Positions 1-39,300 of a DNA stretch of 39,300 nucleotides are shown one piece after another. The DNA comes from Escherichia phage vB_EcoP_F, in the sequence record NC_047808.1; one strand, 5' to 3'. Each line of letters opens with the position of its first letter. The stretch's first letter is position 1. Under the pieces are notes generated by a model, which was not told the DNA's origin, ran no database searches, and worked only from the letters and a program-made list of their open reading frames with translations. The position numbers and the translations under genes were made by a program.

Positions 1-581
1 ATAACGCCACGAAGAACAACCGAGCGATGGACGCTGCCCTGTCCACTGTGATCTCTATGGGTCTTGCTGGTATCTACTACATGGCTCAGGCTCATGTCAA
101 GGCTTACGCTATGCAGGATGGTCGAGACCGTGACTACCTCAAGCAAGCTCTAGACCCGACGATGATTGGATATGCAGCTCTATCACGTAGTTCACACCTT
201 GGTGGACCACTTGGGGTAGCTAACATTCTGGGTGGCATCGCTGGGTATGAGGACACTAAGATGCTCCGTTCGTCTATCCTACCTCGTTCGCCTACAGAGA
301 AGCCTGAACGTGCCATCGCGTATGGTGCAGCTACAAGTGACCCTGTGATGAATGTTGTTGGTAACTTCTTGGAGCAGGTTCCAGCTTTCGGATATGCTGC
401 TAACGTTGGCGCTTCGGCTTACAACTTGGCTGGCTACCTCAAGGCTGATACTCGTGTCAACGAGCGTGACTACATGACCGGGATGTATAATACGTTCCGT
501 GAACTGGTTCCGAACGACCCAATTACCCAGAAGCTGTTGCTTGGGATGTTTGAGGAGCAAGGTATCCACATCAAGGACTAA
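1..581 (+). CDS. internal virion (core) protein gp16, C-terminal part; 5' truncated by window start, same gene as 35995..39300
   Basis: Track ORF 27..581 is open in frame back to nt 3; translation (..NATKNNRAMDAALSTVISMGLAG..VPNDPITQKLLLGMFEEQGIHIKD) matches recalled T7 gp16 C-terminus; gene order 15-16-17. Confidence 0.85.
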   Translation, partial: NATKNNRAMDAALSTVISMGLAGIYYMAQAHVKAYAMQDGRDRDYLKQALDPTMIGYAALSRSSHLGGPLGVANILGGIAGYEDTKMLRSSILPRSPTEKPERAIAYGAATSDPVMNVVGNFLEQVPAFGYAANVGASAYNLAGYLKADTRVNERDYMTGMYNTFRELVPNDPITQKLLLGMFEEQGIHIKD

Positions 582-599
582 ACTATCACTATAGGAAAC
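577..599 (+). promoter_or_regulatory. phage RNA polymerase promoter (phi17 position), ACTAAACTATCACTATAGGAAAC, +1 G at 594
   Basis: Matches the 11-copy consensus in this window; CACTATAGG core as in T7 -7..+2; upstream gene's TAA stop lies inside promoter. Confidence 0.75.
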
Positions 600-645
600 T
601 GGAGGCGCTACCATAGGTCTCCGTTTAAATAACAAAGGAGGCATA

Positions 646-3600
646 ATGTCCACGATTACACAATTCCCTTCAGGAAACACTCAGTACAGGATTGAGTTCG
701 ACTACCTAGCCAGAACGTTTGTTGTTGTTACGCTGGTGAATAGCTCTAACCCTACCCTGAACCGTGTACTGGAAGTTGGTCGAGATTACCGATTCCTTAA
801 TCCAACGATGATTGAGATGTTGGTTGACCAATCAGGTTTCGACATCGTTCGTATTCACCGTCAGACTGGAACTGACTTAGTGGTAGACTTCAGGAATGGC
901 TCAGTGTTGACAGCTAGTGACCTGACCAATTCAGAGCTTCAGGCTATCCATATTGCAGAAGAAGGTCGAGACCAAACGGTTGACTTAGCGAAGGAATATG
1001 CCGATGCTGCTGGTAGCTCTGCTGGCAACGCTAAGGATAGCGAGGACGAAGCACGCCGAATCGCTGCGAGTATCAGGGCAGCTGGTCTAATTGGCTATAT
1101 TACCCGTCGCTCCTTCGAGAAAGGCTACAACGTTACAACATGGAGCGAGGTCCTGCTATGGGAAGAGGATGGTGATTATTACCGCTGGGATGGTACGCTT
1201 CCAAAGAACGTTCCTGCTGGTTCAACTCCTGAAACTTCCGGTGGGATTGGATTAGGTGCGTGGGTTAGTGTTGGTGATGCGGCTTTAAGAAGTCAGATTT
1301 CAAACCCGGAAGGGGCAATACTCTACCCTGAATTACATAGAGCACGCTGGCTTGATGAAAAAGATGTTCGTGGTTGGGGTGCTAAAGGGGATGGTGTCAC
1401 TGATGATACAGCAGCGTTAACGAGCGCATTAAACGACACACCGGTTGGACAAAAGATTAATGGCAATGGGAAGACATATAAGGTCACATCCCTGCCTGAC
1501 ATTAGCCGCTTCATCAACACTCGTTTCGTTTATGAGCGCATTCCCGGACAACCTCTTTATTATGCCTCTGAAGAATTTGTTCAGGGTGAGCTGTTCAAAA
1601 TAACGGACACCCCTTATTATAATGCGTGGCCTCAGGATAAAGCGTTCGTATATGAGAATGTGATATATGCACCTTACATGGGTAGCGATCGTCATGGTGT
1701 TAGTCGTCTGCATGTATCATGGGTTAAGTCTGGTGATGATGGTCAAACATGGTCTACTCCAGAGTGGTTAACTGATCTGCATCCAGATTACCCTACAGTG
1801 AACTATCATTGTATGAGTATGGGTGTATGTCGCAACCGTCTGTTTGCCATGATTGAAACACGTACTTTAGCCAAGAACGCATTAACCAATTGTGCATTGT
1901 GGGATCGCCCCATGTCTCGTAGCCTGCATCTTACTGGCGGTATCACTAAAGCTGCAAATCAGCGATATGCAACAATACATGTACCAGACCACGGACTATT
2001 CGTGGGTGATTTTGTTAACTTCTCTAATTCTGCGGTAACAGGTGTATCCGGTGATATGACTGTTGCAACCGTAATAGATAAGGACAACTTCACGGTTCTT
2101 ACACCCAACCAGCAGACTTCAGATTTGAATAACGCTGGAACGAATTGGCACATGGGTACTTCTTTCCATAAGTCTCCATGGCGTAAGACGGATCTTGGTC
2201 TAATCCCTAGTGTCACAGAGGTGCACAGCTTTGCTACTATTGATAACAATGGCTTTGTTATGGGCTATCATCAAGGTGATGTAGCTCCACGAGAAGTTGG
2301 GCTTTTCTACTTCCCTGATGCTTTCAATAGCCCATCTAATTATGTTCGTCGTCGGATACCATCTGAGTATGAACCAGATGCGGCAGAGCCATGCATCAAG
2401 TACTATGACGGTGTATTATACCTTATCACTCGTGGCACTCGTGGGGATAGACTAGGTAGCTCTTTGCACCGTAGTAGAGACATAGGTCAGACTTGGGAGT
2501 CACTGAGATTTCCACATAATGTTCATCATACTACATTACCTTTTGCTAAAGTAGGGGATGACCTTATTATGTTTGGTTCAGAACGTGCAGAAAATGAATG
2601 GGAAGCAGGTGCACCAGATGATCGTTACAAGGCATCTTATCCTCGCACCTTCTATGCACGCTTGAATGTAAACAATTGGAATGCAGATGATATTGAATGG
2701 GTTAACATCACTGACCAGATTTATCAGGGCGGAATAGTTAACTCAGGTGTAGGTGTTGGTTCGGTAGTTGTGAAGGATAATTACATCTACTACATGTTTG
2801 GTGGAGAGGACCATTTTAACCCATGGACATATGGAGATAACTCAGCGAAGGATCCATTCAAAGCAGATGGTCATCCCTCAGATTTGTATTGCTACAAAAT
2901 GAAGATTGGCCCAAGCAATCATGTTTCCCGTGATTTCAGGTATGGTGCTGTACCTAACAGAGCTGTTCCCGTGTTTTTTGATACGAATGGGATTCGCACT
3001 GTTCCTGCGCCAATGGAATTTACAGGGGATTTGGGTTTAGGTCATGTGACCATTAGAGCCAGCACCAGTAGTAACATTCGCTCTGAAGTTTTAATGGAAG
3101 GTGAATATGGGTTTATCGGGAAATCTATACCGACTGATAACCCGGCAGGGCAGCGCATCATATTTTGCGGGGGTGAAGGCACCAGTTCAACGACTGGCGC
3201 ACAGATTACGCTTTATGGTGCAAATAACACCGACTCAAGGCGAATAGTTTACAATGGTGCTGAGCATCTGTTCCAGACTGCTGACGTTAAGCCTTATAAC
3301 GATAACGTCACTGCGCTTGGTGGGCCTAGCAACCGTTTCACCACTGCATACCTCGGAAGTAACCCTATTGTTACTTCTAACGGGGAGAAGAAAACAGAGC
3401 CGGTAGTTTTTGATGATGCTTTCCTGGATGCCTGGGGTGACGTTCGCTACATCATGTACCAGTGGTTAGATGCTGTTCAACTGAAAGGCAATGATGCTCG
3501 TATTCACTTCGGGGTTATTGCACAGCAAATTCGTGATGTATTCATTGCACATGGTCTGATGGATGAAAACAGTACGAATTGTCGTTATGCTGTTCTGTGC

Positions 3601-3840
3601 TATGACAAGTATCAACGGATGACCGATACGGTATTTTCGCACAATGAAATCGTTGAACACACTGACGAGGAGGGTAATGTCACTACTACGGAAGAACCTG
3701 TATACACCGAGGTGGTTATTCACGAAGAGGGTGAGGAGTGGGGTGTTCGGCCTGACGGAATTTTCTTTGCTGAAGCCGCTTATCAGAGAAGAAAACTGGA
3801 AAGAATCGAAGCCAGACTTTCTGCTCTTGAACAGAAGTAA
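646..3840 (+). CDS. tailspike protein gp17 with endosialidase (endo-N-acetylneuraminidase) domain and C-terminal intramolecular chaperone domain
   Basis: 1064 aa; N-terminus like T7 gp17 adaptor (FDYLARTFVVVTL..); Asp-boxes SGDDGQTW (1729..1752) and SRDIGQTW (2473..2496); C-terminus GVIAQQIRD..RRKLERIEARLSALEQK typical of self-cleaving chaperone domain; AGGAGG RBS. Confidence 0.85.
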   Translation: MSTITQFPSGNTQYRIEFDYLARTFVVVTLVNSSNPTLNRVLEVGRDYRFLNPTMIEMLVDQSGFDIVRIHRQTGTDLVVDFRNGSVLTASDLTNSELQAIHIAEEGRDQTVDLAKEYADAAGSSAGNAKDSEDEARRIAASIRAAGLIGYITRRSFEKGYNVTTWSEVLLWEEDGDYYRWDGTLPKNVPAGSTPETSGGIGLGAWVSVGDAALRSQISNPEGAILYPELHRARWLDEKDVRGWGAKGDGVTDDTAALTSALNDTPVGQKINGNGKTYKVTSLPDISRFINTRFVYERIPGQPLYYASEEFVQGELFKITDTPYYNAWPQDKAFVYENVIYAPYMGSDRHGVSRLHVSWVKSGDDGQTWSTPEWLTDLHPDYPTVNYHCMSMGVCRNRLFAMIETRTLAKNALTNCALWDRPMSRSLHLTGGITKAANQRYATIHVPDHGLFVGDFVNFSNSAVTGVSGDMTVATVIDKDNFTVLTPNQQTSDLNNAGTNWHMGTSFHKSPWRKTDLGLIPSVTEVHSFATIDNNGFVMGYHQGDVAPREVGLFYFPDAFNSPSNYVRRRIPSEYEPDAAEPCIKYYDGVLYLITRGTRGDRLGSSLHRSRDIGQTWESLRFPHNVHHTTLPFAKVGDDLIMFGSERAENEWEAGAPDDRYKASYPRTFYARLNVNNWNADDIEWVNITDQIYQGGIVNSGVGVGSVVVKDNYIYYMFGGEDHFNPWTYGDNSAKDPFKADGHPSDLYCYKMKIGPSNHVSRDFRYGAVPNRAVPVFFDTNGIRTVPAPMEFTGDLGLGHVTIRASTSSNIRSEVLMEGEYGFIGKSIPTDNPAGQRIIFCGGEGTSSTTGAQITLYGANNTDSRRIVYNGAEHLFQTADVKPYNDNVTALGGPSNRFTTAYLGSNPIVTSNGEKKTEPVVFDDAFLDAWGDVRYIMYQWLDAVQLKGNDARIHFGVIAQQIRDVFIAHGLMDENSTNCRYAVLCYDKYQRMTDTVFSHNEIVEHTDEEGNVTTTEEPVYTEVVIHEEGEEWGVRPDGIFFAEAAYQRRKLERIEARLSALEQK

Positions 3841-3973
3841 TAAACAAAACCCTTTTGCCATTAAGTTGGTGGGGTAGATGTTAGAAGGTTGTGGAGGTAG
3901 AGGCTAACTACACGCTAACCAACGTAGGTAACAACTTTGGGTCACGGACGACCCGCTTTAAACTGGAGGTTTT

Positions 3974-4168
3974 ATGATTGAGTTAGACTTCAAGAATGAG
4001 GTCCTTAAAGCCTCTCCTATCGTCGGGACCGCTGCGGCTGATGGTGCCAGTCGGTTCTTCTTCGGACTTACACTGAACGAATGGTTCTACGTTGCAGCTA
4101 TCGCGTACACCGTTGTCCAGATTGGTGTGCTAGTCTACAAAACGATTAAAGGAGGTGGTAAAACATGA
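3974..4168 (+). CDS. class II holin gp17.5
   Basis: 64 aa; FFFGLTLNEWFYVAAIAYTVVQIG matches recalled T7 gp17.5; GGAGG RBS; position after tailspike. Confidence 0.8.
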   Translation: MIELDFKNEVLKASPIVGTAAADGASRFFFGLTLNEWFYVAAIAYTVVQIGVLVYKTIKGGGKT

Positions 4169-4428
4169 CGCAGATGGACTTAGAGAAGTTCCTCTTGATG
4201 CTTGATACTGAGCGTGCTCGACTTATGCTTCAAGACTTGCGGGATGACACTAAGCGTTCACCTCAGCTCTACAACGCCATTGAGAAGCTGCTTGCTCGTC
4301 ACAACTTTGTGTTAAGTAAGGTGTCTGTGGACGAGAAGACGCTGGCTGATATGGAGGCCCTGAACGCAGAGTATGATAAGGTGCTTTCAGCGACTGAGGA
4401 TAATGACACAGGGTATGGTGTTCAATAA
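4165..4428 (+). CDS. terminase small subunit gp18
   Basis: 87 aa, size and position as T7 gp18; ATGA overlap with holin stop. Confidence 0.75.
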   Translation: MTQMDLEKFLLMLDTERARLMLQDLRDDTKRSPQLYNAIEKLLARHNFVLSKVSVDEKTLADMEALNAEYDKVLSATEDNDTGYGVQ

Positions 4429-4480
4429 GTGTTAGACTCAAGGTCATTACTATATGTAGTGGCCTTTATGGTTAACACTA
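4429..4480 (+). promoter_or_regulatory. candidate RNase III processing hairpin (R18.5 position) containing motif TAGACTCAAGGTCAT
   Basis: Imperfect inverted repeat GTGTTA..TAACAC enclosing the recurrent motif; intergenic, same relative position as T7 R18.5. Confidence 0.3.
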
Positions 4481-4529
4481 ACTAGTGGAGGCGACTCTAC
4501 GTGAAATCTGATAAACCGGGAGGGCAACT

Positions 4530-4979
4530 ATGCTCGAATTTTTAAAGAGAGCGGCTCCGTGGTTACTTGCAGCAGTGATGTTTGCTGGTGGCTACCACAC
4601 CGCTAACAATAAGTGGGAGGCTAAGGTCAATGCAGAATACACCTCGAATCTTAAGGCATCGGAGGATACAAGGCTTGCTGTCCAAGCTGAAGTCAACAAA
4701 GTGTCCAAACGGTTCCAGGACGAAATGTCCTCGTTGGAAGGCAGCACTGATAGGATTATTGCTGACCTTAAGTCTGACAATAAGCGGCTGCTCATCCGAG
4801 TCAAACCTACGAGTGGAACCACGCAAAGTGACGGTCGATGCTTCATTGATGGTTACGCCGAACTTGACGAACGAGATGCTAAACGTCTTATCGCCATCGG
4901 AGTGAAAGGAGACAAGTGGATTAAGGCCCTTCAAGACACTGTGAGAGCCTTACAGCAAGAGAAGGAGGTGACGCATTGA
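4530..4979 (+). CDS. Rz-like i-spanin gp18.5
   Basis: 149 aa; N-terminal TM segment ([12 protein letters not shown]) then coiled-coil-like region; GGGAGG RBS; position before large terminase. Confidence 0.75.
4630..4905 (+). CDS. Rz1-like o-spanin lipoprotein embedded in +1 frame of Rz
   Basis: Embedded ORF with signal/lipobox LTISGC (Cys codon 4789..4791), proline-rich C-terminus; ATG 4630 preceded by GGGAGG at 4615..4620; start uncertain (track uses TTG at 4582). Confidence 0.45.
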   Translation: MQNTPRILRHRRIQGLLSKLKSTKCPNGSRTKCPRWKAALIGLLLTLSLTISGCSSESNLRVEPRKVTVDASLMVTPNLTNEMLNVLSPSE

Positions 4980-6739
4980 GTAAAGACTTAGTGGCGCGTC
5001 AGGCGCTAATGACTGCCCGTATGAAGGCAGACTTCGTGTTCTTCCTGTTCGTCCTGTGGAAAGCTCTGTCACTCCCGGTCCCGACTCGCTGTCAGATTGA
5101 CATGGCGAAGAAACTATCGGCTGGCGACAACAGGCGTTTCATCCTACAGGCGTTCCGTGGTATCGGGAAGTCCTTCATTACGTGTGCATTCGTGGTCTGG
5201 AAACTATGGAACAACCCAGACTTGAAGTTCATGATTGTGTCGGCCTCAAAGGAACGAGCCGATGCGAACTCCATCTTCATCAAGCGAATCATCGACCTCA
5301 TGCCTCAGCTTAAGGAACTCAAACCTAAGCAGGGACAGCGAGATGCGGTTATCAGCTTCGACGTTGGACCAGCCAAGCCGGACCACTCACCTTCGGTTAA
5401 GTCCGTTGGTATCACTGGTCAGTTGACTGGTAGTCGTGCTGACATCCTGATTGCCGATGACGTGGAGGTTCCGAACAACTCAGCGACTCAGGCTGCACGA
5501 GACCGTCTGTCAGAGCTTGTGAAAGAGTTCGATGCTATCCTGAAGCCCGGAGGCACAATCATCTATCTGGGTACTCCTCAGAACGAGATGACCCTGTATC
5601 GTGAGCTGGAAGGTCGTGGGTACACCACTACTATCTGGCCTGCTCGTTATCCACGCGACAGGAAGGACTGGCAGTCTTACGGCGACCGTCTGGCTCCTAT
5701 GCTTCAGGCAGAACTGGAAGAGGACCCTGAGTCCTTCTACTGGCGTCCGACCGACGAGGTACGCTTCGATGATACGGACCTGAAGGAACGTGAGTTGTCA
5801 TATGGCAAGGCTGGCTTCGCTCTACAGTTCATGCTTAACCCGAACCTGAGTGATGCTGAGAAGTACCCTCTGAAGCTCCGTGACCTTATCGTAGCTGACT
5901 TGGACCCAGCGTCTAGCCCAATGGTCTACCAATGGCTTCCTAACCCTCAGAACAAGCGTGAGGACGTTCCTAACGTTGGACTCATGGGGGACTCATACCA
6001 CACGTATCAGACTGTAGGTTCTGCCTTCAGTTCGTACACCCAGAAGATTCTAGTCATTGACCCTAGTGGTCGTGGTAAGGATGAAACTGGTTATGCGGTA
6101 CTGTACCAGCTAAACGGCTACATCTTCGCTATGGAAGTTGGCGGTATGCGGGGCGGCTATGAAGACTCTACGCTGGAAGCCCTGGCTAAGATTGGTCGTA
6201 AGTGGAAGGTCAACGAATACGTAATTGAGGGTAACTTCGGTGATGGTATGTACCTTGAGCTATTCAAGCCTGTAGCTTCCCGTATTCATCCTGCTGCTGT
6301 AACTGAAGTGAAGAGTAAGGGTCAGAAGGAACTCCGCATCTGTGACGTTCTGGAGCCTATCATGGGGTCTCACCGACTTATCATCAACGCTGCTGCTATC
6401 GTCCAAGATTACCAGTCTGCCTCTGATAAGGATGGTGTTCGTAATCCTATCTACTCTCTCTTCTACCAGATGACACGTATCTCTCGTGAACGTGGAGCAT
6501 TGGCACACGATGACCGACTTGATGCGCTGGCTATCGGTGTACAGTTCTTCGTTGAGTCTATGGCGAAGGATGCCAACAAAGGCGAACGTGAAGTCACTGA
6601 GGAGTGGCTGGAAGAACAGATGGAGAACCCACGGAAAGGCTTCGAGTCCATCCACACTGAGTTCTGGGACAATGGGGTCCGGGTAACTCACGATACGGAC
6701 GACGAGCTTGGACTAGGGTCCTACGTTACGTTCCACTAG
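4976..6739 (+). CDS. terminase large subunit gp19
   Basis: 587 aa; strong similarity to recalled T7 gp19 from the first residues ([33 protein letters not shown]); apparent TTG start 4976 overlapping Rz stop, GAAGGAGG RBS upstream. Confidence 0.9.
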
Positions 6740-6781
6740 CTGAATGAATAACTATAGGCGAAAACTGAATTAATAAGCAGT

Positions 6782-6800
6782 TAGTAACCTATGGTTACTA
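6782..6800 (+). promoter_or_regulatory. tight hairpin TAGTAACC-TAT-GGTTACTA (8-bp perfect stem, 3-nt loop)
   Basis: Perfect inverted repeat between terminase stop and phiOR-like promoter; no adjacent U-tract. Confidence 0.25.
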
Positions 6801-6833
6801 CCAGTCTAACCTACTGTTTTACAAGGAGTTTGG

Positions 6834-6856
6834 ACTTAACTATCACTATAGGGAAG
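6834..6856 (+). promoter_or_regulatory. phage RNA polymerase promoter (phiOR position), ACTTAACTATCACTATAGGGAAG
   Basis: Consensus match; located after gene 19 as T7 phiOR. Confidence 0.75.
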
Positions 6857-7035
6857 ACCCCCGGTTACTTATAGTATTACTGTAGTGAATATACATATGC
6901 AGACTTTATGCAAGACCTTAGGAGGCAGACTCCGAGTTCTTACCTAAGGCTTGCACCGATGGAAGGAGGGTGATATTAATCATAATCCCTCCAATACAGA
7001 TAGTAAAGACCATAGATACAGGAGGTATGTAGCAT

Positions 7036-7194
7036 ATGGCAAAGACCAAAGCTGTACTTAAAGCTCTGGCTACCAATCGAGCTACATACAGGTTTCTTGC
7101 TGCTGTTCTACTTGCTGCTGGCGTTACTGCTGGAAGTAAGTGGGTCGGGTGGGTCGAGACTCTCGTATGTTCTCTGGTGTCTCAGTGCAATTAA
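7036..7194 (+). CDS. gp19.5-like small membrane protein
   Basis: 52 aa (MAKTKAVLKALATNRATYRFLAAVLLAAGV..); GGAGG RBS at 7021..7025; resembles recalled T7 gp19.5 (RVTYRFL motif); last gene before genome end. Confidence 0.5.
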   Translation: MAKTKAVLKALATNRATYRFLAAVLLAAGVTAGSKWVGWVETLVCSLVSQCN

Positions 7195-7309
7195 CGCAAT
7201 CATGGTAACGATTCATGAAAGGAGGTAGGTAGGTGTGAACGAAGATGACTACGTGTCGTTCTCAGAAGAGGACTACCAGACAGAGTGGGAATACGCACAT
7301 GGGAGGAAG

Positions 7310-7356
7310 AGCTAAGGTCAGTACGTGGATAAAGACTCACTCTACTGACCTTAGCT
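7310..7356 (+). promoter_or_regulatory. perfect 14-bp stem hairpin AGCTAAGGTCAGTA ... TACTGACCTTAGCT with 19-nt loop
   Basis: Exact inverted repeat 7310..7323 / 7343..7356 in the non-coding right-end region. Confidence 0.35.
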
Positions 7357-7447
7357 ACTGTAGTCAAGGACTTTAGGTAACACCTTAATAGAAGCTCACT
7401 TAGGGTCATCCTACTTATTGGTCCATCCTAGTGTCGCCTGACCTACG

Positions 7448-7490
7448 GTCCTTGACCTACAGTGGCTGTGGCCTACAGTAGTGACGATGA
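7448..7490 (+). repeat. short imperfect direct repeats (GACCTACGG / GACCTACAGTGG / GGCCTACAGTAG), right-end array
   Basis: Three CCTACAG-like units at about 14-bp spacing immediately before predicted terminus; analogous to T7 short-repeat array adjacent to terminal repeat. Confidence 0.3.
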
Positions 7491-7517
7491 GTTTTGGACC
7501 AAAAGTTTGAGACCACA

Positions 7518-7715
7518 TCTCACAGTTCAAGAACCTCAAGTCTCCCCATAGGCCCTCTTTAAGTCCAGACCAAAGGCCCTACCCAGTCTATCATAAGGCT
7601 GGACCGATGGTCGACGATAGGTCTAGGCTATGGCTGGAGGTCAGGACGATAGGTAGGGACTATTGGTCTGTCTCTGAGTCTCTATCTGTATAGTGATATA
7701 GTATAACATTACGTC
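7518..7715 (+). other. predicted physical genome terminus and terminal-repeat region (single collapsed copy); left end predicted at 7518
   Basis: TCTCACAGTTCAAGAACC..CCCCATAGG at 7518 resembles recalled T7/T3 left-terminal sequence (TCTCACAG..); non-coding; flanked by short-repeat arrays; right boundary not determinable. Confidence 0.3.
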
Positions 7716-7815
7716 CTACACCTACAGTCCTACACCTACAGTCCTACAACCTACAGTCCTACAACCTACAGTCACAACCATAAGACACCAACACCTACAG
7801 TCATAGACCTACAGT
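7716..7815 (+). repeat. array of imperfect short tandem repeats (unit approx CCTACA[A]CCTACAGT, 14-15 bp period)
   Basis: cctacacctacagtcctacacctacagtcctacaacctacagtcctacaacctacagtc.. seen directly; position equals T7 left-end short-repeat array. Confidence 0.5.
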
Positions 7816-7926
7816 TAATAGACACACAGCTATAGACTTAAGGTCAAAGACATGTTAGTCAAAGACTATATCCTCTTACACCATGAGGCCGACGATAGCT
7901 CAATCAATATTATTTCGAATTACCTA

Positions 7927-7956
7927 TTGACTATAGGTCTAGACTATGGCTTAATA
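7927..7956 (+). promoter_or_regulatory. candidate host sigma70 early promoter (A1-like): TTGACT-17 bp-CTTAAT
   Basis: -35 TTGACT at 7927..7932; spacer contains CTAGACTATGG resembling T7 A1 spacer; weak -10. Confidence 0.3.
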
Positions 7957-8067
7957 GCTTCCGTCAACACGACACGGCAACAACCGGATAGTGAAGACGC
8001 CTGGTCATCCCGGTTAAGTAGACAGCCTGATAAGTCATACGAACAACAGGCAGATGACAGAAAGTAG

Positions 8068-8105
8068 TTGACAAGATGTAACGATAAGATGTAAGCTGTA
8101 CCACA
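8068..8105 (+). promoter_or_regulatory. candidate host sigma70 early promoter (A2/A3-like): TTGACA-18 bp-TAAGCT followed by GTACCACAT
   Basis: Consensus -35 TTGACA at 8068..8073; architecture and downstream GTACCACAT resemble recalled T7 A2/A3 promoters. Confidence 0.45.
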
Positions 8106-8204
8106 TCGAAACAACGGTGATGACCAACACTGAAATGGTCTACCTGAAGTCCTCTGACTGAAGGGAATGCTCTTTAACAATCTGGATAAACTCTTAATGT
8201 GCGC

Positions 8205-8262
8205 CGACAGTGATTAACTACAGGGTCTTTGAGTCTACATCTGAAGGCCCTGACTGATAGTC
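8205..8262 (+). promoter_or_regulatory. candidate RNase III site/hairpin (AGTGATTAACTACAGG ... CCTGACTGATAGTCACTAAC), copy 1
   Basis: Imperfect inverted repeat; a near-identical copy precedes the ocr gene (8532..8590). Confidence 0.35.
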
Positions 8263-8284
8263 ACTAACTTAACGGATGGACACT

Positions 8285-8530
8285 ATGAAACACTTAAGCA
8301 CAATCACTAATCGCAATGAAGTATTCGTGAACACTAAAGGTTATGCGTGGATTCAGCTTAAAGAGATGACAGGAGCGCGTCACCGTGTGGTAGTGCGCAA
8401 GGTCTCAAGCAAGCCATTCAGCAACTACAGCGTAGATACTGTGCGTATAGACAACGAGACCTACCTGATAGACTCGCAGATAACCGTGAGTCTTACAGCG
8501 GGCGTCTCAGCTCCTTATTTCGCTAACTGA
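8285..8530 (+). CDS. hypothetical early protein (first gene downstream of host promoters)
   Basis: Track ORF 8276..8530; start moved to ATG 8285 with GGATGG RBS; no recognisable homolog. Confidence 0.45.
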   Translation: MKHLSTITNRNEVFVNTKGYAWIQLKEMTGARHRVVVRKVSSKPFSNYSVDTVRIDNETYLIDSQITVSLTAGVSAPYFAN

Positions 8531-8531
8531 G

Positions 8532-8590
8532 AGTGATTAACTACAGGTCGTTAGACTCATAGCGGCCTGACTGATAGTCACTAACATACA
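8532..8590 (+). promoter_or_regulatory. candidate RNase III site/hairpin, copy 2 (R0.3-like), upstream of ocr
   Basis: Repeat of the 8205..8262 element (AGTGATTAACTACAGG..GCCTGACTGATAGTCACTAAC). Confidence 0.35.
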
Positions 8591-8617
8591 CACAAACAAC
8601 TTTGAGAGGATATAACT

Positions 8618-8962
8618 ATGGAACGTAACGCTAACGCATACTATGAGCTGCTGGCTGCAACCGTTGAGCTGTTCAATGAGCGTATTCAGTACGACGAAAT
8701 AACTGAAGGCGATGATTATTATGATGCGCTGCATGAGGTCGTAGACGGTCAGGTTCCGCACTATTACCACGAGATTTTTACGGTGATGGCTGCTGATGGT
8801 ATAGACCACGAGTTCGAAGACTCTGGGCTGATGCCTGAGACCAAGGACGTAATGCGTATACTACAAGCTCGCATCTATGAGGCTCTGTATAACGATGTGT
8901 ATGATAGCTCGGATGTAGTCTGGTTCGAGGCTGAAGAGAGTGACGAGGAGGACTGCGAGTGA
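8618..8962 (+). CDS. ocr: Ocr-like DNA-mimic anti-restriction protein gp0.3
   Basis: 114 aa, acidic; strong match to recalled T7 gp0.3 (VPHYY..IF.VMA..GID.EFEDSGLMP.TKDV.RILQARIYE). Confidence 0.85.
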   Translation: MERNANAYYELLAATVELFNERIQYDEITEGDDYYDALHEVVDGQVPHYYHEIFTVMAADGIDHEFEDSGLMPETKDVMRILQARIYEALYNDVYDSSDVVWFEAEESDEEDCE

Positions 8963-9111
8963 TGGTAACTTATGGTCTCTGCCAGCACCACGTCACCAAC
9001 GCCCGGCTTATGGTCAAGACCGGGCAGTTAAACCACGATGCGACTATGCGCCACCTGAAAGCGGTCTACGAGGGCCGCAAGCGTATACACGACAGCTTAC
9101 ACACTGAGTGA
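8962..9111 (+). CDS. hypothetical early protein, 49 aa
   Basis: ATGA overlap with ocr stop, GAGGAGGA upstream; own translation MVTYGLCQHHVTNARLMVKTGQLNHDATMRHLKAVYEGRKRIHDSLHTE. Confidence 0.4.
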   Translation: MVTYGLCQHHVTNARLMVKTGQLNHDATMRHLKAVYEGRKRIHDSLHTE

Positions 9112-9177
9112 TAGACGAGAGGTCATCGACTGATAGGTGGCCTCAAAGATTACCACTTACATTGATAGGAGTTAACT

Positions 9178-9267
9178 ATGAACATCGGTTACTGGGTATG
9201 CCTGTCTCCAGTTATCTGGATGATAGGCTATGGGTTATACGACTGTATTAAACGGAAATCACTATGA
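9178..9267 (+). CDS. hypothetical small hydrophobic peptide, 29 aa
   Basis: GGAG RBS at 9166..9169; MNIGYWVCLSPVIWMIGYGLYDCIKRKSL; stop overlaps next start (ATGA). Confidence 0.35.
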   Translation: MNIGYWVCLSPVIWMIGYGLYDCIKRKSL

Positions 9268-9461
9268 GTAGCGCAATATTGATAGCCATAGGCTATGGAC
9301 TTATCGCCTACGTGCTGGTGAGAGACATCGACAAAGCGCGTAAAGTCTACAAATTCAACTATGTACGTCTGGGCCGCTGGACTGTACGTCAACCTAACGG
9401 ACGATTCATGCGCAACTTAGCGAACGTCTGGGATATAGCAACTATTGGGAGCAAACTGTAA
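9264..9461 (+). CDS. hypothetical early membrane protein, 65 aa
   Basis: Track ORF; N-terminal TM helix (AILIAIGYGLIAYVLV); translationally coupled. Confidence 0.45.
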   Translation: MSSAILIAIGYGLIAYVLVRDIDKARKVYKFNYVRLGRWTVRQPNGRFMRNLANVWDIATIGSKL

Positions 9462-14765: not shown

Positions 14766-15201
14766 GGTGGGGGATACAGTTGAATATGTTGGACCAGTTG
14801 AAGCCTACACGGGACGCTCCTGTGGCAAGGTGATAGTGGTTAAGAATGAGCATGTAGCTGTTGTTAAGTGGCCCGGTTTATCTGAACCACTCAGTCACTC
14901 CATTAGCTCCTTAAGTATTACCAATCAGGCTCAGTCCGAGCCGACAACCATAGGTCAGGGAGATAGCGTCCGTAAGCCGTCGCACTATCAGGTCTTTGAC
15001 GGTGTGGAATCCATTGAGATTATCGCCCGGTCCATGACTGTCAGTGAGTTCCGTGGTTTCTGCATGGGTAACGTCCTGAAGTATCGACTCCGAGCTGGTA
15101 AGAAGTCAGAGCTGGCTACTATGGAGAAGGACCTGAACAAAGCAGCCTTCTATCAGGAGTTGTTCGACCTGCATAAAGGTAAGTGCTATGACTCCAAGTA
15201 G
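14758..15201 (+). CDS. gp1.7-like nucleotide kinase (C-terminal domain conserved)
   Basis: 147 aa; KPSHYQVFDGVESIEIIARSMTVSEFRGFCMGNVLKYRLRAGKKSEL matches recalled T7 gp1.7 C-terminus; shorter N-terminus than T7. Confidence 0.7.
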   Translation: MVKVGDTVEYVGPVEAYTGRSCGKVIVVKNEHVAVVKWPGLSEPLSHSISSLSITNQAQSEPTTIGQGDSVRKPSHYQVFDGVESIEIIARSMTVSEFRGFCMGNVLKYRLRAGKKSELATMEKDLNKAAFYQELFDLHKGKCYDSK

Positions 15202-15279
15202 CTGGTGCTTTAGACAGTGGGTCTCAACCGGGAATGTGGACTACCTGTCCATGTACCATATGTGGAAGGAGAAAGGACT

Positions 15280-15438
15280 ATGAGCCTTGAAGAAAAGAAG
15301 TACATCGTGGAGCTTGAGGGACGCGTTCAGTCCTTCGAGGTTCCGTTGTACGCAAAGTCTCTTGAAGAGGCTACCCTGAAGTCCCAAGAGTATGAGGACG
15401 CTGGGTTTGTGGTCGGACGGATTCGTCCTGAGACCTAA
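15280..15438 (+). CDS. gp2-like inhibitor of host RNA polymerase
   Basis: [24 protein letters not shown] matches recalled T7 gp2; start ATG 15280 with GGAAGGAG RBS (track ORF starts 15217). Confidence 0.7.
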
Positions 15439-15456
15439 ACTATCACTGTAGGACAG
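15434..15456 (+). promoter_or_regulatory. phage RNA polymerase promoter variant (phi2.5 position), CCTAAACTATCACTGTAGGACAG (-3 A to G)
   Basis: Consensus match except one core substitution. Confidence 0.55.
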
Positions 15457-15495
15457 ACGTCCAGTTCGTAACTTTAAAATAGGAGATTTACACCG

Positions 15496-16194
15496 ATGGC
15501 TAAAGAGCAACTGAAGACTTTCACCACTCCGGTAGCTGGCATAGTTGAGCCTTACGCATGGCTGAACAAAGCAGACACCAAGTTTAACGAGCGTGGTGAG
15601 CATAAGGTTAACCTGACATTCGACCTGAGCAACCCGAAGGTCCGTAAGATGATTGATGTCTTACAGAAGATTCACGACGATGCGTATGCGAAAGCACTTG
15701 CAGACCACGAGAAGAACCCACCTCAGGTTCAGCGTGGCAAGAAGCCTATTGAACCACGAGAAGGCGACATGCCGTGGATTGAGAATGGTGACGGTACTGT
15801 TACCTTGAAGTTTAAATGCTTCGCGTCTTACCTGAAGGATGGTAAGTCTGAGCCTATCGTATTACGGTTCTACGACACCGATGCTAAGTTAATCCGTGAC
15901 GTCCCGAATATTGGCGCTGGCTCAAAGCTGAAGGTCAAGTTTAAAGTCCTGCCGTTTAAGTGGAACGCTGCGACTGGTGCAAGCGTTAAGCTCCAACTTG
16001 AGTCCTGCCTTCTGGTAGAACTGAAGGAGTGGAAAGGCGATGGTGCTGGTGGCGATGGTGGTTGGGGTGATGATGAAGACCTCGGTACTGGCTACAAAGC
16101 GTCAACCGATGGTGACTTCGGGTCTGATGACTTCGGTGACGATGGTTCCGAAGGTGGTTCCGAGTCCAACTCTGGTGGCGATTACGACTTCTAA
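15496..16194 (+). CDS. single-stranded DNA-binding protein gp2.5
   Basis: 232 aa, same length as T7 gp2.5; acidic C-terminal tail ending in F (..GGDYDF). Confidence 0.9.
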   Translation: MAKEQLKTFTTPVAGIVEPYAWLNKADTKFNERGEHKVNLTFDLSNPKVRKMIDVLQKIHDDAYAKALADHEKNPPQVQRGKKPIEPREGDMPWIENGDGTVTLKFKCFASYLKDGKSEPIVLRFYDTDAKLIRDVPNIGAGSKLKVKFKVLPFKWNAATGASVKLQLESCLLVELKEWKGDGAGGDGGWGDDEDLGTGYKASTDGDFGSDDFGDDGSEGGSESNSGGDYDF

Positions 16195-19550: not shown

Positions 19551-19856
19551 ATGTTACGAAAACTTAAAGCTCGCTACCATCGGTTCATGTACAAATGGTG
19601 GAGTGACGAAGCAACCTGCCTGTCCAACATTCTGGGAGACCAAAGGTTCGAAGGCGTGGGGAGGGTAAAGCTCGCTACCATCGGTTCATGTACAAATGGT
19701 GGAGTGACGAAGCAACCTGCCTGTCCAACATTCTGGGAGACCAAAGGTTCGACTCCGAGGCGTGGAAGAGAGCTAACCGGAAGTTTATGTATCACTTCTT
19801 GCGTACAGACTTCTAGGTCTAGACTCAAGGTCATTCATAGCGAGTGGCCTGTATGA
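19551..19856 (+). CDS. hypothetical protein ORF altered by an internal 101-bp tandem duplication (gene 4.x region)
   Basis: GGAGGG RBS before ATG 19551; reading passes through repeat copy 1 in one frame and copy 2 in another. Confidence 0.3.
   Translation: MLRKLKARYHRFMYKWWSDEATCLSNILGDQRFEGVGRVKLATIGSCTNGGVTKQPACPTFWETKGSTPRRGRELTGSLCITSCVQTSRSRLKVIHSEWPV
19565..19766 (+). repeat. tandem direct duplication, period 101 bp, 87 bp identical (19565..19651 = 19666..19752)
   Basis: Seen directly: TAAAGCTCGCTACCATCGGTTCATGTACAAATGGTGGAGTGACGAAGCAACCTGCCTGTCCAACATTCTGGGAGACCAAAGGTTCGA twice. Confidence 0.85.
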
Positions 19857-35990: not shown

Positions 35991-35994
35991 CATA

Positions 35995-38900
35995 ATGGCG
36001 ACTCGTGGTATTCGCAATAACAATCCGGGTAACATCCGGGTAAGTAAGGACCAATGGGAAGGAATGACTGGAGATGATGGCGCATTTGTCACCTTCGATA
36101 GTCCAGAGTCTGGCGTCCGAGCTTTAGGTAAAAACCTGCTGTCCTACGGTCGCCGAGGTTATGACTCCATCGAGAAGATTATCAACCGATGGGCACCTCC
36201 TAACGAGAACGACACTAAGGCTTATATCGACTCAGTGGTGGCTGCAACTGGTATTCCAGCTACCCAGAGTCTCGACCTATCGGACCCTGACACCCTGTCT
36301 TCTCTGGCTCAAGCTATCAGCTTCCATGAGACAGGCTCCCGGTACGACCCTGAAGTCTATCAGAAGGGAGTCGCACGAGCACTCAATGGCATTAGCCCAA
36401 AGACTCCACCAGTAAGCGCTAACGTATTTGACGCACTCACGGAAGGACTCAAGGCTAAACCTAAAGTAGCTCTGGGCGAGAACCTTCCGACCGCTGCTGG
36501 TCTAAACATTGAGGGTCAAGCACCTGAAGCTCCCAACGAATCGTTCGGTGAGATGTTCTATAAGTCTACTGGCGAGACCATGCAGGAACGAGAGGATCGC
36601 TCTACGTGGTTCGGTTTCGGCTCGGCTACAGAAGCTGAAGTGAAGAACTCTATGGTCGGCGTGGCTATCCGCGCTGGTCAGACCGAGGACTCACTTGATG
36701 TCATTGGCGATGTGTTCAACCCTACCCGCTGGAACAACCATAAGTGGACTCGTGAAGAGCTTGACCAGATTCGTAACGCTGGGGTTCTGCCTCAGTATTA
36801 CGGAGTAATTACTGGCGGTTCTCCTCAGAATCTGACAGAGCTGATCAACTTGGCGTTGGAGAACCAGAAGTTGGACCAAGAGAAGGCCAAGGCTGGGACT
36901 GGTGCTCAGTTAGCTGCTGGTGTGATTGGCGCTGGTGTGGATCCTCTGACCTACGTTCCTATCGCTGGACAGATTGGTAAGGGTGGCAAGCTGGTCAACA
37001 AGATGTTCACCGTTGCTGCTCAATCTGGAGCACTTGCTGGTGTATCAGAGATGGCCCGTACCTCAGTGGCTGGTGGTGATGCTCATGTGGCTGAGGCTAT
37101 CCTTGGCGGTGCTCTCTTCGGCGGAGGCATGACTGCTATCGCTGATGGTTTAGGCAGAGCCTTAGGTCGCAACACTAATGAGTTCGCTGGCCCAGCTACA
37201 CGTCTGGAAGCTCGTGAGACCGCTCGTAACATTGATGGTCAGGACCTGTCTCGTCTCCCTATTCAGGAAGGTGAGCAGACCTTTAGTCATCAAGGCGTTA
37301 AGTTCGCCGACGTTCCGAATGAGCCTGGTAGTGTGCGGCTGGAGGATGGTTCAATCCTGATTGGTGAGAACCCTCTGAACCCTAAGACACGTAAGGTCTT
37401 TGACGAAGTGATTGAGCCTGAACGGGCCGCTGCTGGTGTGAACCTTGGTGGTCTGACTGAGATTGGCCTGAAGCTGCTTCGGTCTGAGAACCCTGAGATT
37501 CGTGGAGTAGCTGCTGACTTAGTGCGTTCACCGACTGGTATGCAGTCTGGGGCCTCAGGTAAAATCGGGACCACTGCGTCTGACGTATTCGAGAGACTTC
37601 GTGCTGTGGACCATCGGTTCTACAATGACATCGACGATGCGGTTACTGAGGCCCTAAAGGACCCGTACTTCCAGACAGCATTCTGGCGAGACTCTGGAGC
37701 ATTCCGTCAGGACATCTACCAGCGTGTGTCTATGGCTATCGAAGATGGTAGCGGAAACCTGAAGGCTGAACTGACTCCGGGAGAACTGAAAGTCTATGAC
37801 CTGCTGAAGAACCAGTTTGACGCCAAGCGTGAGATGATGGAGAACCCGGCGATGTTTGGTCGTCCAGACGCTCAGTCTATCTTTCCGGGCAGCCGCTTCA
37901 AGGGAACCTACGTCCCGCATGTGTATAGCAACCAGATGAAGGAGCTGTACATCAAGGAGCTTGGGAGTCCAGAGGCACTACAGGAGGCCATCAAGAAGTC
38001 ATGGTTGACCAGCTATGCGTCTCGACCTGAGGTCAAGAAACGTGTGGACGAGGCACTCTTAGAGGCTGACCCTACGTTGACTCCAGAAGGACTTGCGGCT
38101 GCGGTCGATAAGTACGCCAACGATAAGGCTTATGGTATCTCTCACACCGAGCAGTTCGAGCGTTCATCCGTAATGGAAGAGAACATCAATGGTCTGGTGG
38201 GTCTGGAGAACAACAGCTTCCTTGAGGCTCGTAACCTGTTCGATAGCGATATGTCAATCGTCCTACCTAACGGTCAGACCTTCAGTGTCAACAACCTGCG
38301 TGAGTGGGACATGGACAAGATTGTCCCGGCCTACAACCGTCGAGTTAATGGCGATATTGCTATCATGGCTGGTACAGGCAAGACCACGAAGGACATGAAG
38401 GACTTGGTTGAGACCATGATGAACAAGGCTGGGGATGACGGTAAGTTGAAAGGTGAAGTATCTACCTTACGTGACACCTTGAAGATTCTAACTGGTCGTG
38501 CTCGACGTGATGGTGCTGATGATGCAGCCTTCGCTACCGTGATGCGCACAATGACAGACCTATCGTTCTTCGCTAAGAATGCCTACATGGGTGTTCAGAA
38601 CTTAACGGAGATTGGTGGTATGCTGGCTCGTGGCAACGTTCGTGCAATGCTGCATGGAGTCCCAATTTTCCGTGACCTAGCCTTCCGTAACAAGAAGGTT
38701 GGGGCCTCAGAGATTAAGGACCTGCACAATGTTATCTTCGGTAAGGAACTGGATGACTCAATCCGTCCGTCTAAACAGGATGTCATTGACCGTCTGCGAT
38801 CTTACAGTGACCTCGGTCGTGGTACAGCTACAGCTCTGGGGACTGCCAAGTATTACACTGGCGAACTTGCAGTACGCTCTCCGTTCACTAAAGTCCTCAA

Positions 38901-39300
38901 CGGTACGACCAACTACCTGTTAGATGCTGGACGTCAAGGCTTCCTGTCTGACATCGTGGAGCATAGCCTGACTGGTAGTAAGCGTAAGTTCGATGACCGC
39001 TGGCTTAAGACCGCTGGTATCTCTGACGAGCAGTGGAAGGGCATTAAGTCCCTCATCCGTGAGTCAGTGACTCGTGGTCCAGACGGGAAGTACACCATCA
39101 AGGATAAGAAGGCGTTCAGTCAGGACCCAAGGGCTATGGACCTATGGCGTATGGGTGATACCATCGCTGACGAAACGTTACTACGTCCTCATAAGCTGTC
39201 CAACATGGACGCAAAGGCTTATGGTCCTCTCGCTAAGACTGTCCTTCAGTTTAAGAACTTCGTCATCAAGTCCATCAATGGACGTACCATGCGAACCTTC
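35995..39300 (+). CDS. internal virion (core) protein gp16, N-terminal part; 3' truncated by window end, continues at window start
   Basis: Open frame from ATG 35995 to last base (1102 codons, no stop), which is why it is absent from the ORF track; end ..VLQFKNFVIKSINGRTMRTF aligns with recalled T7 gp16 just upstream of the residues at window start. Confidence 0.9.
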   Translation, partial: MATRGIRNNNPGNIRVSKDQWEGMTGDDGAFVTFDSPESGVRALGKNLLSYGRRGYDSIEKIINRWAPPNENDTKAYIDSVVAATGIPATQSLDLSDPDTLSSLAQAISFHETGSRYDPEVYQKGVARALNGISPKTPPVSANVFDALTEGLKAKPKVALGENLPTAAGLNIEGQAPEAPNESFGEMFYKSTGETMQEREDRSTWFGFGSATEAEVKNSMVGVAIRAGQTEDSLDVIGDVFNPTRWNNHKWTREELDQIRNAGVLPQYYGVITGGSPQNLTELINLALENQKLDQEKAKAGTGAQLAAGVIGAGVDPLTYVPIAGQIGKGGKLVNKMFTVAAQSGALAGVSEMARTSVAGGDAHVAEAILGGALFGGGMTAIADGLGRALGRNTNEFAGPATRLEARETARNIDGQDLSRLPIQEGEQTFSHQGVKFADVPNEPGSVRLEDGSILIGENPLNPKTRKVFDEVIEPERAAAGVNLGGLTEIGLKLLRSENPEIRGVAADLVRSPTGMQSGASGKIGTTASDVFERLRAVDHRFYNDIDDAVTEALKDPYFQTAFWRDSGAFRQDIYQRVSMAIEDGSGNLKAELTPGELKVYDLLKNQFDAKREMMENPAMFGRPDAQSIFPGSRFKGTYVPHVYSNQMKELYIKELGSPEALQEAIKKSWLTSYASRPEVKKRVDEALLEADPTLTPEGLAAAVDKYANDKAYGISHTEQFERSSVMEENINGLVGLENNSFLEARNLFDSDMSIVLPNGQTFSVNNLREWDMDKIVPAYNRRVNGDIAIMAGTGKTTKDMKDLVETMMNKAGDDGKLKGEVSTLRDTLKILTGRARRDGADDAAFATVMRTMTDLSFFAKNAYMGVQNLTEIGGMLARGNVRAMLHGVPIFRDLAFRNKKVGASEIKDLHNVIFGKELDDSIRPSKQDVIDRLRSYSDLGRGTATALGTAKYYTGELAVRSPFTKVLNGTTNYLLDAGRQGFLSDIVEHSLTGSKRKFDDRWLKTAGISDEQWKGIKSLIRESVTRGPDGKYTIKDKKAFSQDPRAMDLWRMGDTIADETLLRPHKLSNMDAKAYGPLAKTVLQFKNFVIKSINGRTMRTF

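Follow-up and report, generated by a model that had tools for sequence, protein, structure and literature searches.

In the T7 scheme the packaged genome carries a copy of one repeat at each of its ends (see also PMC5000459). Such direct terminal repeats (DTRs) are produced when staggered nicks are extended by DNA synthesis, and where base 1 falls in an assembly of such a phage is arbitrary (PMC5557969). Short-read assemblers often drop a DTR copy of T7-like phages and linearise the contig mid-genome (PMC10438801). In T7 (NC_001604) and T3 (NC_003298) the elements around the repeat come in one order: gene 19, the promoter phiOR, gene 19.5, a heptamer array, the repeat itself (TCTCA(C/T)AG..CCCCATAG), an ATCTGT motif, a second heptamer array, the promoters A1 and A2, and gene 0.3 (ocr). 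Among phages related to K1F (NC_007456 / DQ111067), K1F itself is reported to have a repeat of 179 bp, and for SH3, which is K1F-like, run-off sequencing of virion DNA has established where the ends lie (PMC4925675). The record of another such relative, EcoDS1 (EU734172), already annotates a 'terminal repeat', a 'concatemeric junction', 'phiOR' and host promoters. We analyzed the homologous sites in Escherichia phage vB_EcoP_F (NC_047808.1), whose record of 39,300 nucleotides, one strand read 5' to 3', is referred to here as the window.

The same order of elements was found in the window. The region around positions 7518-7683 is very probably the concatemer junction of a K1F-like phage whose linear virion DNA would carry 7518-7683 at both ends, and the window itself would be a collapsed, circularised assembly of that DNA. 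On this basis we predict a unit genome of 39,301 bp and a virion DNA of ~39,467 bp.

The window is the complete unit genome of a K1F-like podophage of the T7 family, genus Kayfunavirus, which is the classification of its nearest records. K1F aligned to it by blastn at 84-97% identity, with gene order kept, along almost all of its length, and Pfam identified in it a T7-type large terminase, a small terminase, a single-subunit RNA polymerase, an endosialidase tail spike and ocr. The terminase and RNA polymerase of K1F are at least 99% identical to those of the window (99.7% and 99.0%; the small terminase reaches 98.9%), whereas those of T7 are only ~65% identical. The nearest public record, ON548433.1 (Escherichia phage vB_EcoP_FFK3), is co-linear with the window on the same coordinates, has the same length of 39,300 and is ~98.5% identical to it. 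Over 3,501 bp around the junction the two differed by substitutions only, 60 in all, with 0 indels. We observed differences of ~1.4-2.3% in the parts compared (5900-9400, 35900-39300 and 1-700), many of them 3 nt apart, as in natural synonymous variation, while the length, the start point and one missing base are common to both. Such a pattern could come from a consensus guided by a reference, or from a sibling record set on the same coordinate frame.

The terminal repeat and its boundaries

We assign the DTR to 7518-7683 on the + strand, where a single collapsed copy of 166 bp most probably lies, and predict virion ends at 7518 on the left and ~7683 on the right. Two blastn alignments to K1F bear on this directly. 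Window positions 1-7682 matched K1F 32021-39704, reaching the right end of K1F, and window positions 7518-8938 matched K1F 1-1434, beginning at its left end. The two alignments overlap on 7518-7682, and such an overlap is the signature of one collapsed terminal-repeat copy; the window holds this stretch only once. In length the repeat compares with 160 bp in T7 and 231 bp in T3.

The left end was compared with the records of related phages. The sequence TCTCACAGTTCAAGAACCTCAAGTCTCCCCATAGG, at 7518-7552, has a single occurrence in the window and is identical to bases 1-35 of K1F; in K1F, EcoDS1, PE3-1, Penshu1 and SH3 the first 43 nt are identical. When the repeat alone was used as a query, position 7518 (TCTCACAGTTCAAGAACC...) corresponded to base 1 in the records of ~13 distinct related phage genomes, among them two separate K1F sequencings, EcoDS1, YZ1, LS2, LS3, ECG4, NS1, Penshu1, Peacock and Kaz2018. 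The left ends of T7 (TCTCACAGTGTACGGACCTAAAGTTCCCCCATAGG) and T3 (TCTCATAGTTCAAGAACCCAAAGT..CCCATAG), read from their own records, are clearly related to it. The left end thus begins TCTCACAG... and is homologous to termini determined in close relatives, which bears out an earlier sequence-only reading that had recognised at 7518 a sequence like the left end of T7 and T3. That reading had also called the stretch non-coding, and we agree: the sole overlapping open reading frame (ORF), 42 codons on the minus strand, has no Pfam or PHROG support.

Several of these relatives also have an annotated or predicted repeat. The EcoDS1 record annotates a 'terminal repeat 1-178' with a second copy at 39075-39252, Penshu1 and Peacock have 179-bp repeats predicted by PhageTerm, and Providencia phage EPr2 has an annotated DTR of 179 bp; all four repeats start at the same sequence as 7518. 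The EPr2 record (OM256482.1) has an unusual beginning of its own. Within its positions 1-680, a DTR copy at 1-179 is fused to the middle of gene 19.5, followed by unique right-end sequence and a second DTR at 501-679, and the start of this record looks mis-joined.

The right boundary, which the sequence-only reading had not given, could be placed at 7683 to within 1-4 nt. Five of the 8 relatives whose records show both ends stop at ...GAGTCTCT; by comparison K1F is 1 nt shorter, CR44b 1 nt longer and SH3 4 nt longer. Past the repeat, the unique left-hand sequence continues ATCTGTAT in all 8. Identical copies of 178-190 bp stand at both record ends in 6 of the 8, and the right end of the eighth record is truncated. 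The right-end sequence (...GAGTCTC[T]) is shared among the K1F relatives. We also examined conservation along the repeat in 18 relatives. These had been collected with the exact 35-nt pattern of 7518-7552, and those 35 columns are invariant by construction and are not independent evidence. Beyond them, 7553-7577 is at least 92% conserved, the middle is variable, and the last ~45 bp are 83-88% conserved.

A number of points weigh against this assignment. For this phage, the presence of two repeat copies and the exact points of cutting are inferred by homology. The right boundary carries an uncertainty of 1-4 nt, with the K1F record ending 1 nt earlier and the SH3 run-off end lying 4 nt later. 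The other listed relatives all have a longer repeat, by 12-30 bp (178-196 bp); the shortness here is due to internal deletions of 13 nt and 1 nt, both in the poorly conserved middle and both shared with ON548433.1, and they could be real or assembly errors. To the right of the repeat, a consensus scan for sigma-70 promoters and terminators did not call the A1- and A2-type promoters, its hits being at chance level (4 versus 3.3 expected). Finally, the motif directly after the repeat reads ATCTGTA, and for T7 polymerase any change in ATCTGTT is reported to abolish termination; it is the last base that differs here.

There is a small chance that the ends are fixed and of T7 type but shifted relative to those of K1F, through repeat deletions or an assembly error in low-complexity sequence, so that 7518 and 7683 would be approximate. 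The short repeat, 166 bp against 178-196 bp, would suit such a shift, as would the scatter among the relatives' records, whose right ends vary by 1-4 nt and whose left ends vary by 1-2 nt (CR44b begins 2 nt earlier); yet the deletions sit in the poorly conserved middle, and the sequence on both sides of them has been kept. In the 18 relatives the 35 bp to the left of 7518 are near-invariant, and the high conservation of 7553-7577 and of the last ~45 bp of the repeat likewise argues for ends in the K1F positions.

Headful packaging of a genuinely circularly permuted genome, with 7518 at most a pac site, is a still less probable account. It would explain why the stretch is present only once and why the window, but for 1 nt, forms a closed circle. 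Headful (pac) packaging goes with a terminase of the P22, T4 or P1 type and with variable ends, whereas the large terminase encoded here has the T7-specific RNaseH-like domain and is, as noted above, nearly identical to K1F gp19. The starts in the relatives are fixed, ~13 records beginning at the same nucleotide, 6 of the two-ended relatives carry identical copies of 178-190 bp, and PhageTerm places relatives in its short-DTR class. We retain the predicted T7-type DTR at 7518-7683.

The window edges and gene 16

The two edges of the window fall in one gene, which is present in two parts:

35995..39300, + strand: 5' part of gene 16, 1102 codons, running off the window end
1..581, + strand: 3' part of gene 16, in phase only once one T is restored before position 1

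The window stops after a whole gene 16 codon (...NGRTMRTF), the gene resumes in frame 3 (NATKNNRAMD...), and a direct join is out of frame. The sequence-only reading had noted that the edges lie in gene 16 and are out of frame, with a deficit of 3n+1 nt; this stands with n = 0, and its estimate of about 10 nt does not, the deficit being exactly 1 nt, a T. The join reads ...CGAACCTTC[T]ATAACGCC, translated F-Y-N-A, where relatives read ...CGAACCTTCTATAACGCC. A query of 800 nt made from the joined edges covered 801 bp in relatives. At least 80% of it was covered in one place by 217 related records, and all of the 15 matches listed spanned the junction continuously. On K1F coordinates, window position 39300 corresponds to 32019 and window position 1 to 32021. 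With the T restored, gene 16 has 3,888 nt and encodes 1,295 aa that align without gaps to K1F gp16 at 97.4% identity.

ON548433.1 has identical edges. There gene 16 (internal virion protein D) is unannotated, since the record ends divide it and the lost base shifts its frame; its last 184 codons are called 'hypothetical protein'. This record is labelled linear and complete with the same start, end and length as the window, but that the window's own ends are the physical ends, with the genome beginning and ending inside gene 16, is very improbable, given that the edges carry adjoining portions of one gene from which a single base has gone missing, that the repaired gp16 is gapless against K1F, that relatives run continuously through the join, and that no terminal repeat is present at the edges.

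We favor instead the collapsed assembly with its ends at 7518 and ~7683. The sequence-only reading had proposed just such a collapsed and arbitrarily opened assembly of a linear, terminally redundant genome, and it gains support from the overlapping K1F alignments and from the ends of the relatives. The window, like ON548433.1, is permuted and has no second repeat copy, unlike the K1F relatives compared above, and many GenBank records of Kayfunavirus are permuted as the window is. Compared with the collapsed-DTR artefact of other T7-like assemblies, the window has in addition lost one base at closure, which puts gene 16 out of frame.

Arrays, motif and other parts of the junction

Around the repeat the following features were identified:

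4165..4428, + strand: gene 18, small terminase subunit (Pfam DNA_Packaging_2, E=3e-12; 98.9% identical to K1F gp18)
4976..6739, + strand: gene 19, T7-type large terminase (TTG start at 4976, K1F-equivalent start at ~5012; Pfam Terminase-T7_RNaseH-like, E=5e-38)
6834..6856, + strand: phiOR-type promoter of the phage RNA polymerase, TTAACTATCACTATAGGGAAGAC (+1 at ~G6851), reading rightward through gene 19.5 into the junction
7036..7194, + strand: gene 19.5 homologue, 52 aa (PHROG 2193, E=2e-24; aligns with EcoDS1 gp19.5)
7310..7356, no strand assigned: hairpin (perfect inverted repeat, stem 14 bp, loop 19 nt; centre 185 bp to the left of the terminal repeat)
7442..7478, + strand: right-end-side short-repeat array (CCTACGG at 7442, CCTACAG at 7456 and 7472; spacing 14-16 bp), 46-76 bp before the repeat
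7483..7517, no strand assigned: near-invariant block GACGATGAGTTTTGGACCAAAAGTTTGAGACCACA, abutting the left cut site (mean column identity 0.91-0.98 in 18 relatives)
7683..7690, + strand: concatemer-junction motif TATCTGTA, abutting the repeat (6/7 match to the T7 class II pause/termination core ATCTGTT)
7713..7815, + strand: left-end-side short-repeat array (period 14-15, six exact ACCTACAGT copies and variants)
7927..7955, + strand: A1-type early host (sigma-70) promoter (TTGACT, 17-bp spacer, CTTAAT), assigned by homology only
8068..8097, + strand: A2-type early host promoter (TTGACA, 18-bp spacer, TAAGCT), assigned by alignment to the second EcoDS1 host promoter

The two heptamer arrays flank the repeat on the same strand, as they do in T7 and T3, with 3 CCTACAG-type copies on one side and at least 6 on the other. 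The exact heptamer CCTACAG occurs 27 times in the window against 6.3 expected, a count that was not attained in any of 100 shuffles. Eight of these copies, all + strand, fall within the ~360 bp of 7456-7814, where 0.06 would be expected, and the Poisson probability of this cluster is ~6e-10 even when conditioned on the total of 27. A chance origin of the arrays was rejected on these figures. Tandem Repeats Finder described 7713-7815 as 7.1 copies of period 14 (score 107), with exact CCTACAG at 7721, 7735, 7750, 7765, 7794 and 7808 and the variants CCTACAC, CCTACAA and CCATAAG.

The heptamer of T7 and T3 is CCTAAAG, where the window has CCTACAG. In T7, CCTAAGG/CCTAAAG copies just left of the right terminal repeat are the counterpart of 7442-7478, and ~12 CCTAAAG-type copies at 175-340 are the counterpart of 7713-7815. 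Copy number and unit composition of the left-end-side array vary between relatives. In K1F and EcoDS1 it mixes CCATAAGTC and CCTACAGTC, whereas the window has six ACCTACAGT spaced by CCTAC(A/AA). The sequence-only reading had reported both arrays, at 7448-7490 and 7716-7815, and a likeness to the T7 layout. The arrays are real and these coordinates right within a few bases, and the likeness held when we checked it directly on the T7 and T3 records.

Directly after the repeat stands the junction motif. Its core is ATCTGTA, at an exact position relative to the repeat edge, and the base before it is T, one of the three (A, C or T) that may precede the T7 core. The concatemer junction of T7 contains the class II signal ATCTGTT, where the polymerase pauses or terminates, and in the T7 record it occupies 161-167, directly after the 160-bp repeat; T3 has the same motif after its 231-bp repeat. 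The K1F relatives share TATCTGTA, and the records of EcoDS1 and PE3-1 annotate the site as 'concatemeric junction'. The motif is at least 90% conserved in the 18 relatives, with the ATCTGTA variant kept across the genus. By analogy with T7, a polymerase of the K1F type may pause at ATCTGTA.

We compared the occurrence of the two heptanucleotides on each strand. On the transcribed (+) strand ATCTGTA occurs only at the junction, both in the window (7684) and in K1F, and ATCTGTT occurs 3 times in the window (3266, 12316 and 18019, in genes 17, 1 and 4) and 2 times in K1F. The + strand of T7 has ATCTGTT only at the junction and no ATCTGTA, and its - strand has 4 of each. In 129 kb from 20 related loci, non-junction ATCTGTA was found at ~2 distinct sites on the + strand versus ~12 on the - strand; all these strand counts are small, come from genomes related to one another and are uncontrolled for codon bias. 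It is possible, if rather doubtful, that K1F-like phages use a genus-specific (T)ATCTGTA pause signal, read by their own polymerase, and tolerate ATCTGTT in essential genes. Such a variant pause motif is only a mildly new point, and we offer it as a possible lead, not as a result.

The gene 18 and gene 19 products together make a T7-type terminase. The gene 19 product shares 99.7% identity with K1F gp19 across 575 aa and 66% with T7 gp19; gp18 is 47% identical to that of T7. The promoter consensus of the window has 11 matches in it (0.01 expected), of which the one at 6834-6856 aligns with the 'phiOR' of EcoDS1 and lies in the position equivalent to T7 phiOR. This position and gene 19.5 are shared by the K1F relatives. 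T7 and T3 have a phiOL promoter between the repeat and A1, and in the window none was found there: between 7684 and 8600 there was no match to the promoter consensus within 3 mismatches.

The hairpin at 7310-7356 folds with -14.7 kcal/mol as DNA (z -4.3) and -27.7 kcal/mol as RNA (z -4.35), scored against shuffled sequence. Across 18 related junctions its stems are invariant and its loop is variable, and there was no covariation in these relatives, the stems being invariant, which speaks neither for nor against pairing. The K1F relatives named above share the stems. T7 has only imperfect inverted repeats left of its repeat, where the window has a perfect 14-bp hairpin, and the alignment between the two is weak. 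T7 forms a 'hairpin end' intermediate left of its junction; on so weak an alignment we make no claim that 7310-7356 is its counterpart. As an intrinsic terminator the hairpin was rejected, since no T-run follows it. We also observed a very acidic ORF of 26 codons (VNEDDYVSFSEEDYQTEWEYAHGRKS) at 7235-7316 on the + strand, with a strong Shine-Dalgarno sequence upstream and its stop codon inside the left arm of the hairpin. K1F has this ORF in unannotated form, with the protein sequence conserved; EcoDS1, PE3-1 and EPr2 lack it.

The block at 7483-7517 lies outside the 35-nt pattern with which the 18 relatives were gathered. It contains a palindrome, TTTTGGaCCAAAA, at 7492-7504, 14 bp before the cut site, and is a candidate terminase recognition sequence. 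To the right of the repeat, 7927-7955 aligns with the first 'host RNAP promoter' of EcoDS1 and resembles T7 A1, and 8068-8097 resembles T7 A2; A1/A2-type promoters are shared by the K1F relatives. EcoDS1 has a third host promoter within an insertion that the window does not have. A search of 6700-8700 against Rfam at E<=1 returned no family. The ORFs in or beside the region had no Pfam match, and their PHROG matches show merely that the same small ORFs have been called before.

Two further observations concern the left-end side. A 71-codon ORF at 7852-8067 (+ strand), overlapping the A1-type promoter region, is called 'alpha,alpha-trehalase' in ON548433.1; it had no Pfam match at E<=1, and the label looks spurious. 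Two near-duplicate RNA hairpins (GTGATTAACTACAGG...CTGACTGATAGTCACTAAC) on the + strand, at 8209-8265 (-23.2 kcal/mol, z -2.7) and 8532-8583 (-23.7 kcal/mol, z -4.25), bracket an ORF at 8276-8530. They match no Rfam family and resemble the RNase III processing sites of T7 early mRNA; they and ocr lie to the right of the early promoters.

Elsewhere in the window, 19565-19752, in the stretch separating gene 4 from gene 5, holds 1.86 copies of a 101-bp unit in tandem. The copies are identical in the window, and in ON548433.1 3 sites distinguish them. The unit is single in other Kayfunavirus records, where a 551-nt query spans only ~450 bp, and the tandem could be a real recent duplication or an assembly artefact. 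The DNA polymerase gene of K1F is annotated as a join of 2 pieces around an insertion of ~600 bp (14932-15535), which is labelled an HNH endonuclease. This insertion is absent from the window at 21892-21897.

A model of the junction and its use

The model that best accounts for these observations takes its mechanism from established T7 biology, and the parts verified here are the sequence components alone. Replication and recombination through the repeats would give head-to-tail concatemers with one repeat copy per junction. A T7-type terminase (gp18/gp19) would then act at fixed sites, the two edges of the repeat, and extension synthesis from staggered nicks would duplicate the repeat, leaving a copy at each end of the packaged genome. 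The phage polymerase, starting from the phiOR-type promoter at 6834-6856, would enter the junction and be expected to pause at TATCTGTA (7683-7690). The hairpin at 7310-7356, the block at 7483-7517 and the two heptamer arrays would belong to the junction as conserved accessory elements. During assembly, the two repeat copies would have been merged and the circle closed with the loss of one base, and the circle would then have been opened inside gene 16.

The feature, its parts and the assembly artefact have already been described for T7, T3, K1F and EcoDS1, and the finding is correct but ordinary. Its value is practical rather than conceptual, and the understanding of T7-type packaging is unchanged. 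In the correct layout the genome would start at 7518 and end at 7683 with a second copy of the 166-bp repeat, and a T would be restored between 39300 and 1. By the same layout ON548433.1 is permuted and without its repeat, with gene 16 split and unannotated. Correct ends are needed for comparative genomics, for the synthetic rebooting and engineering of K1-capsule-specific therapeutic phages, and for the interpretation of packaging signals.

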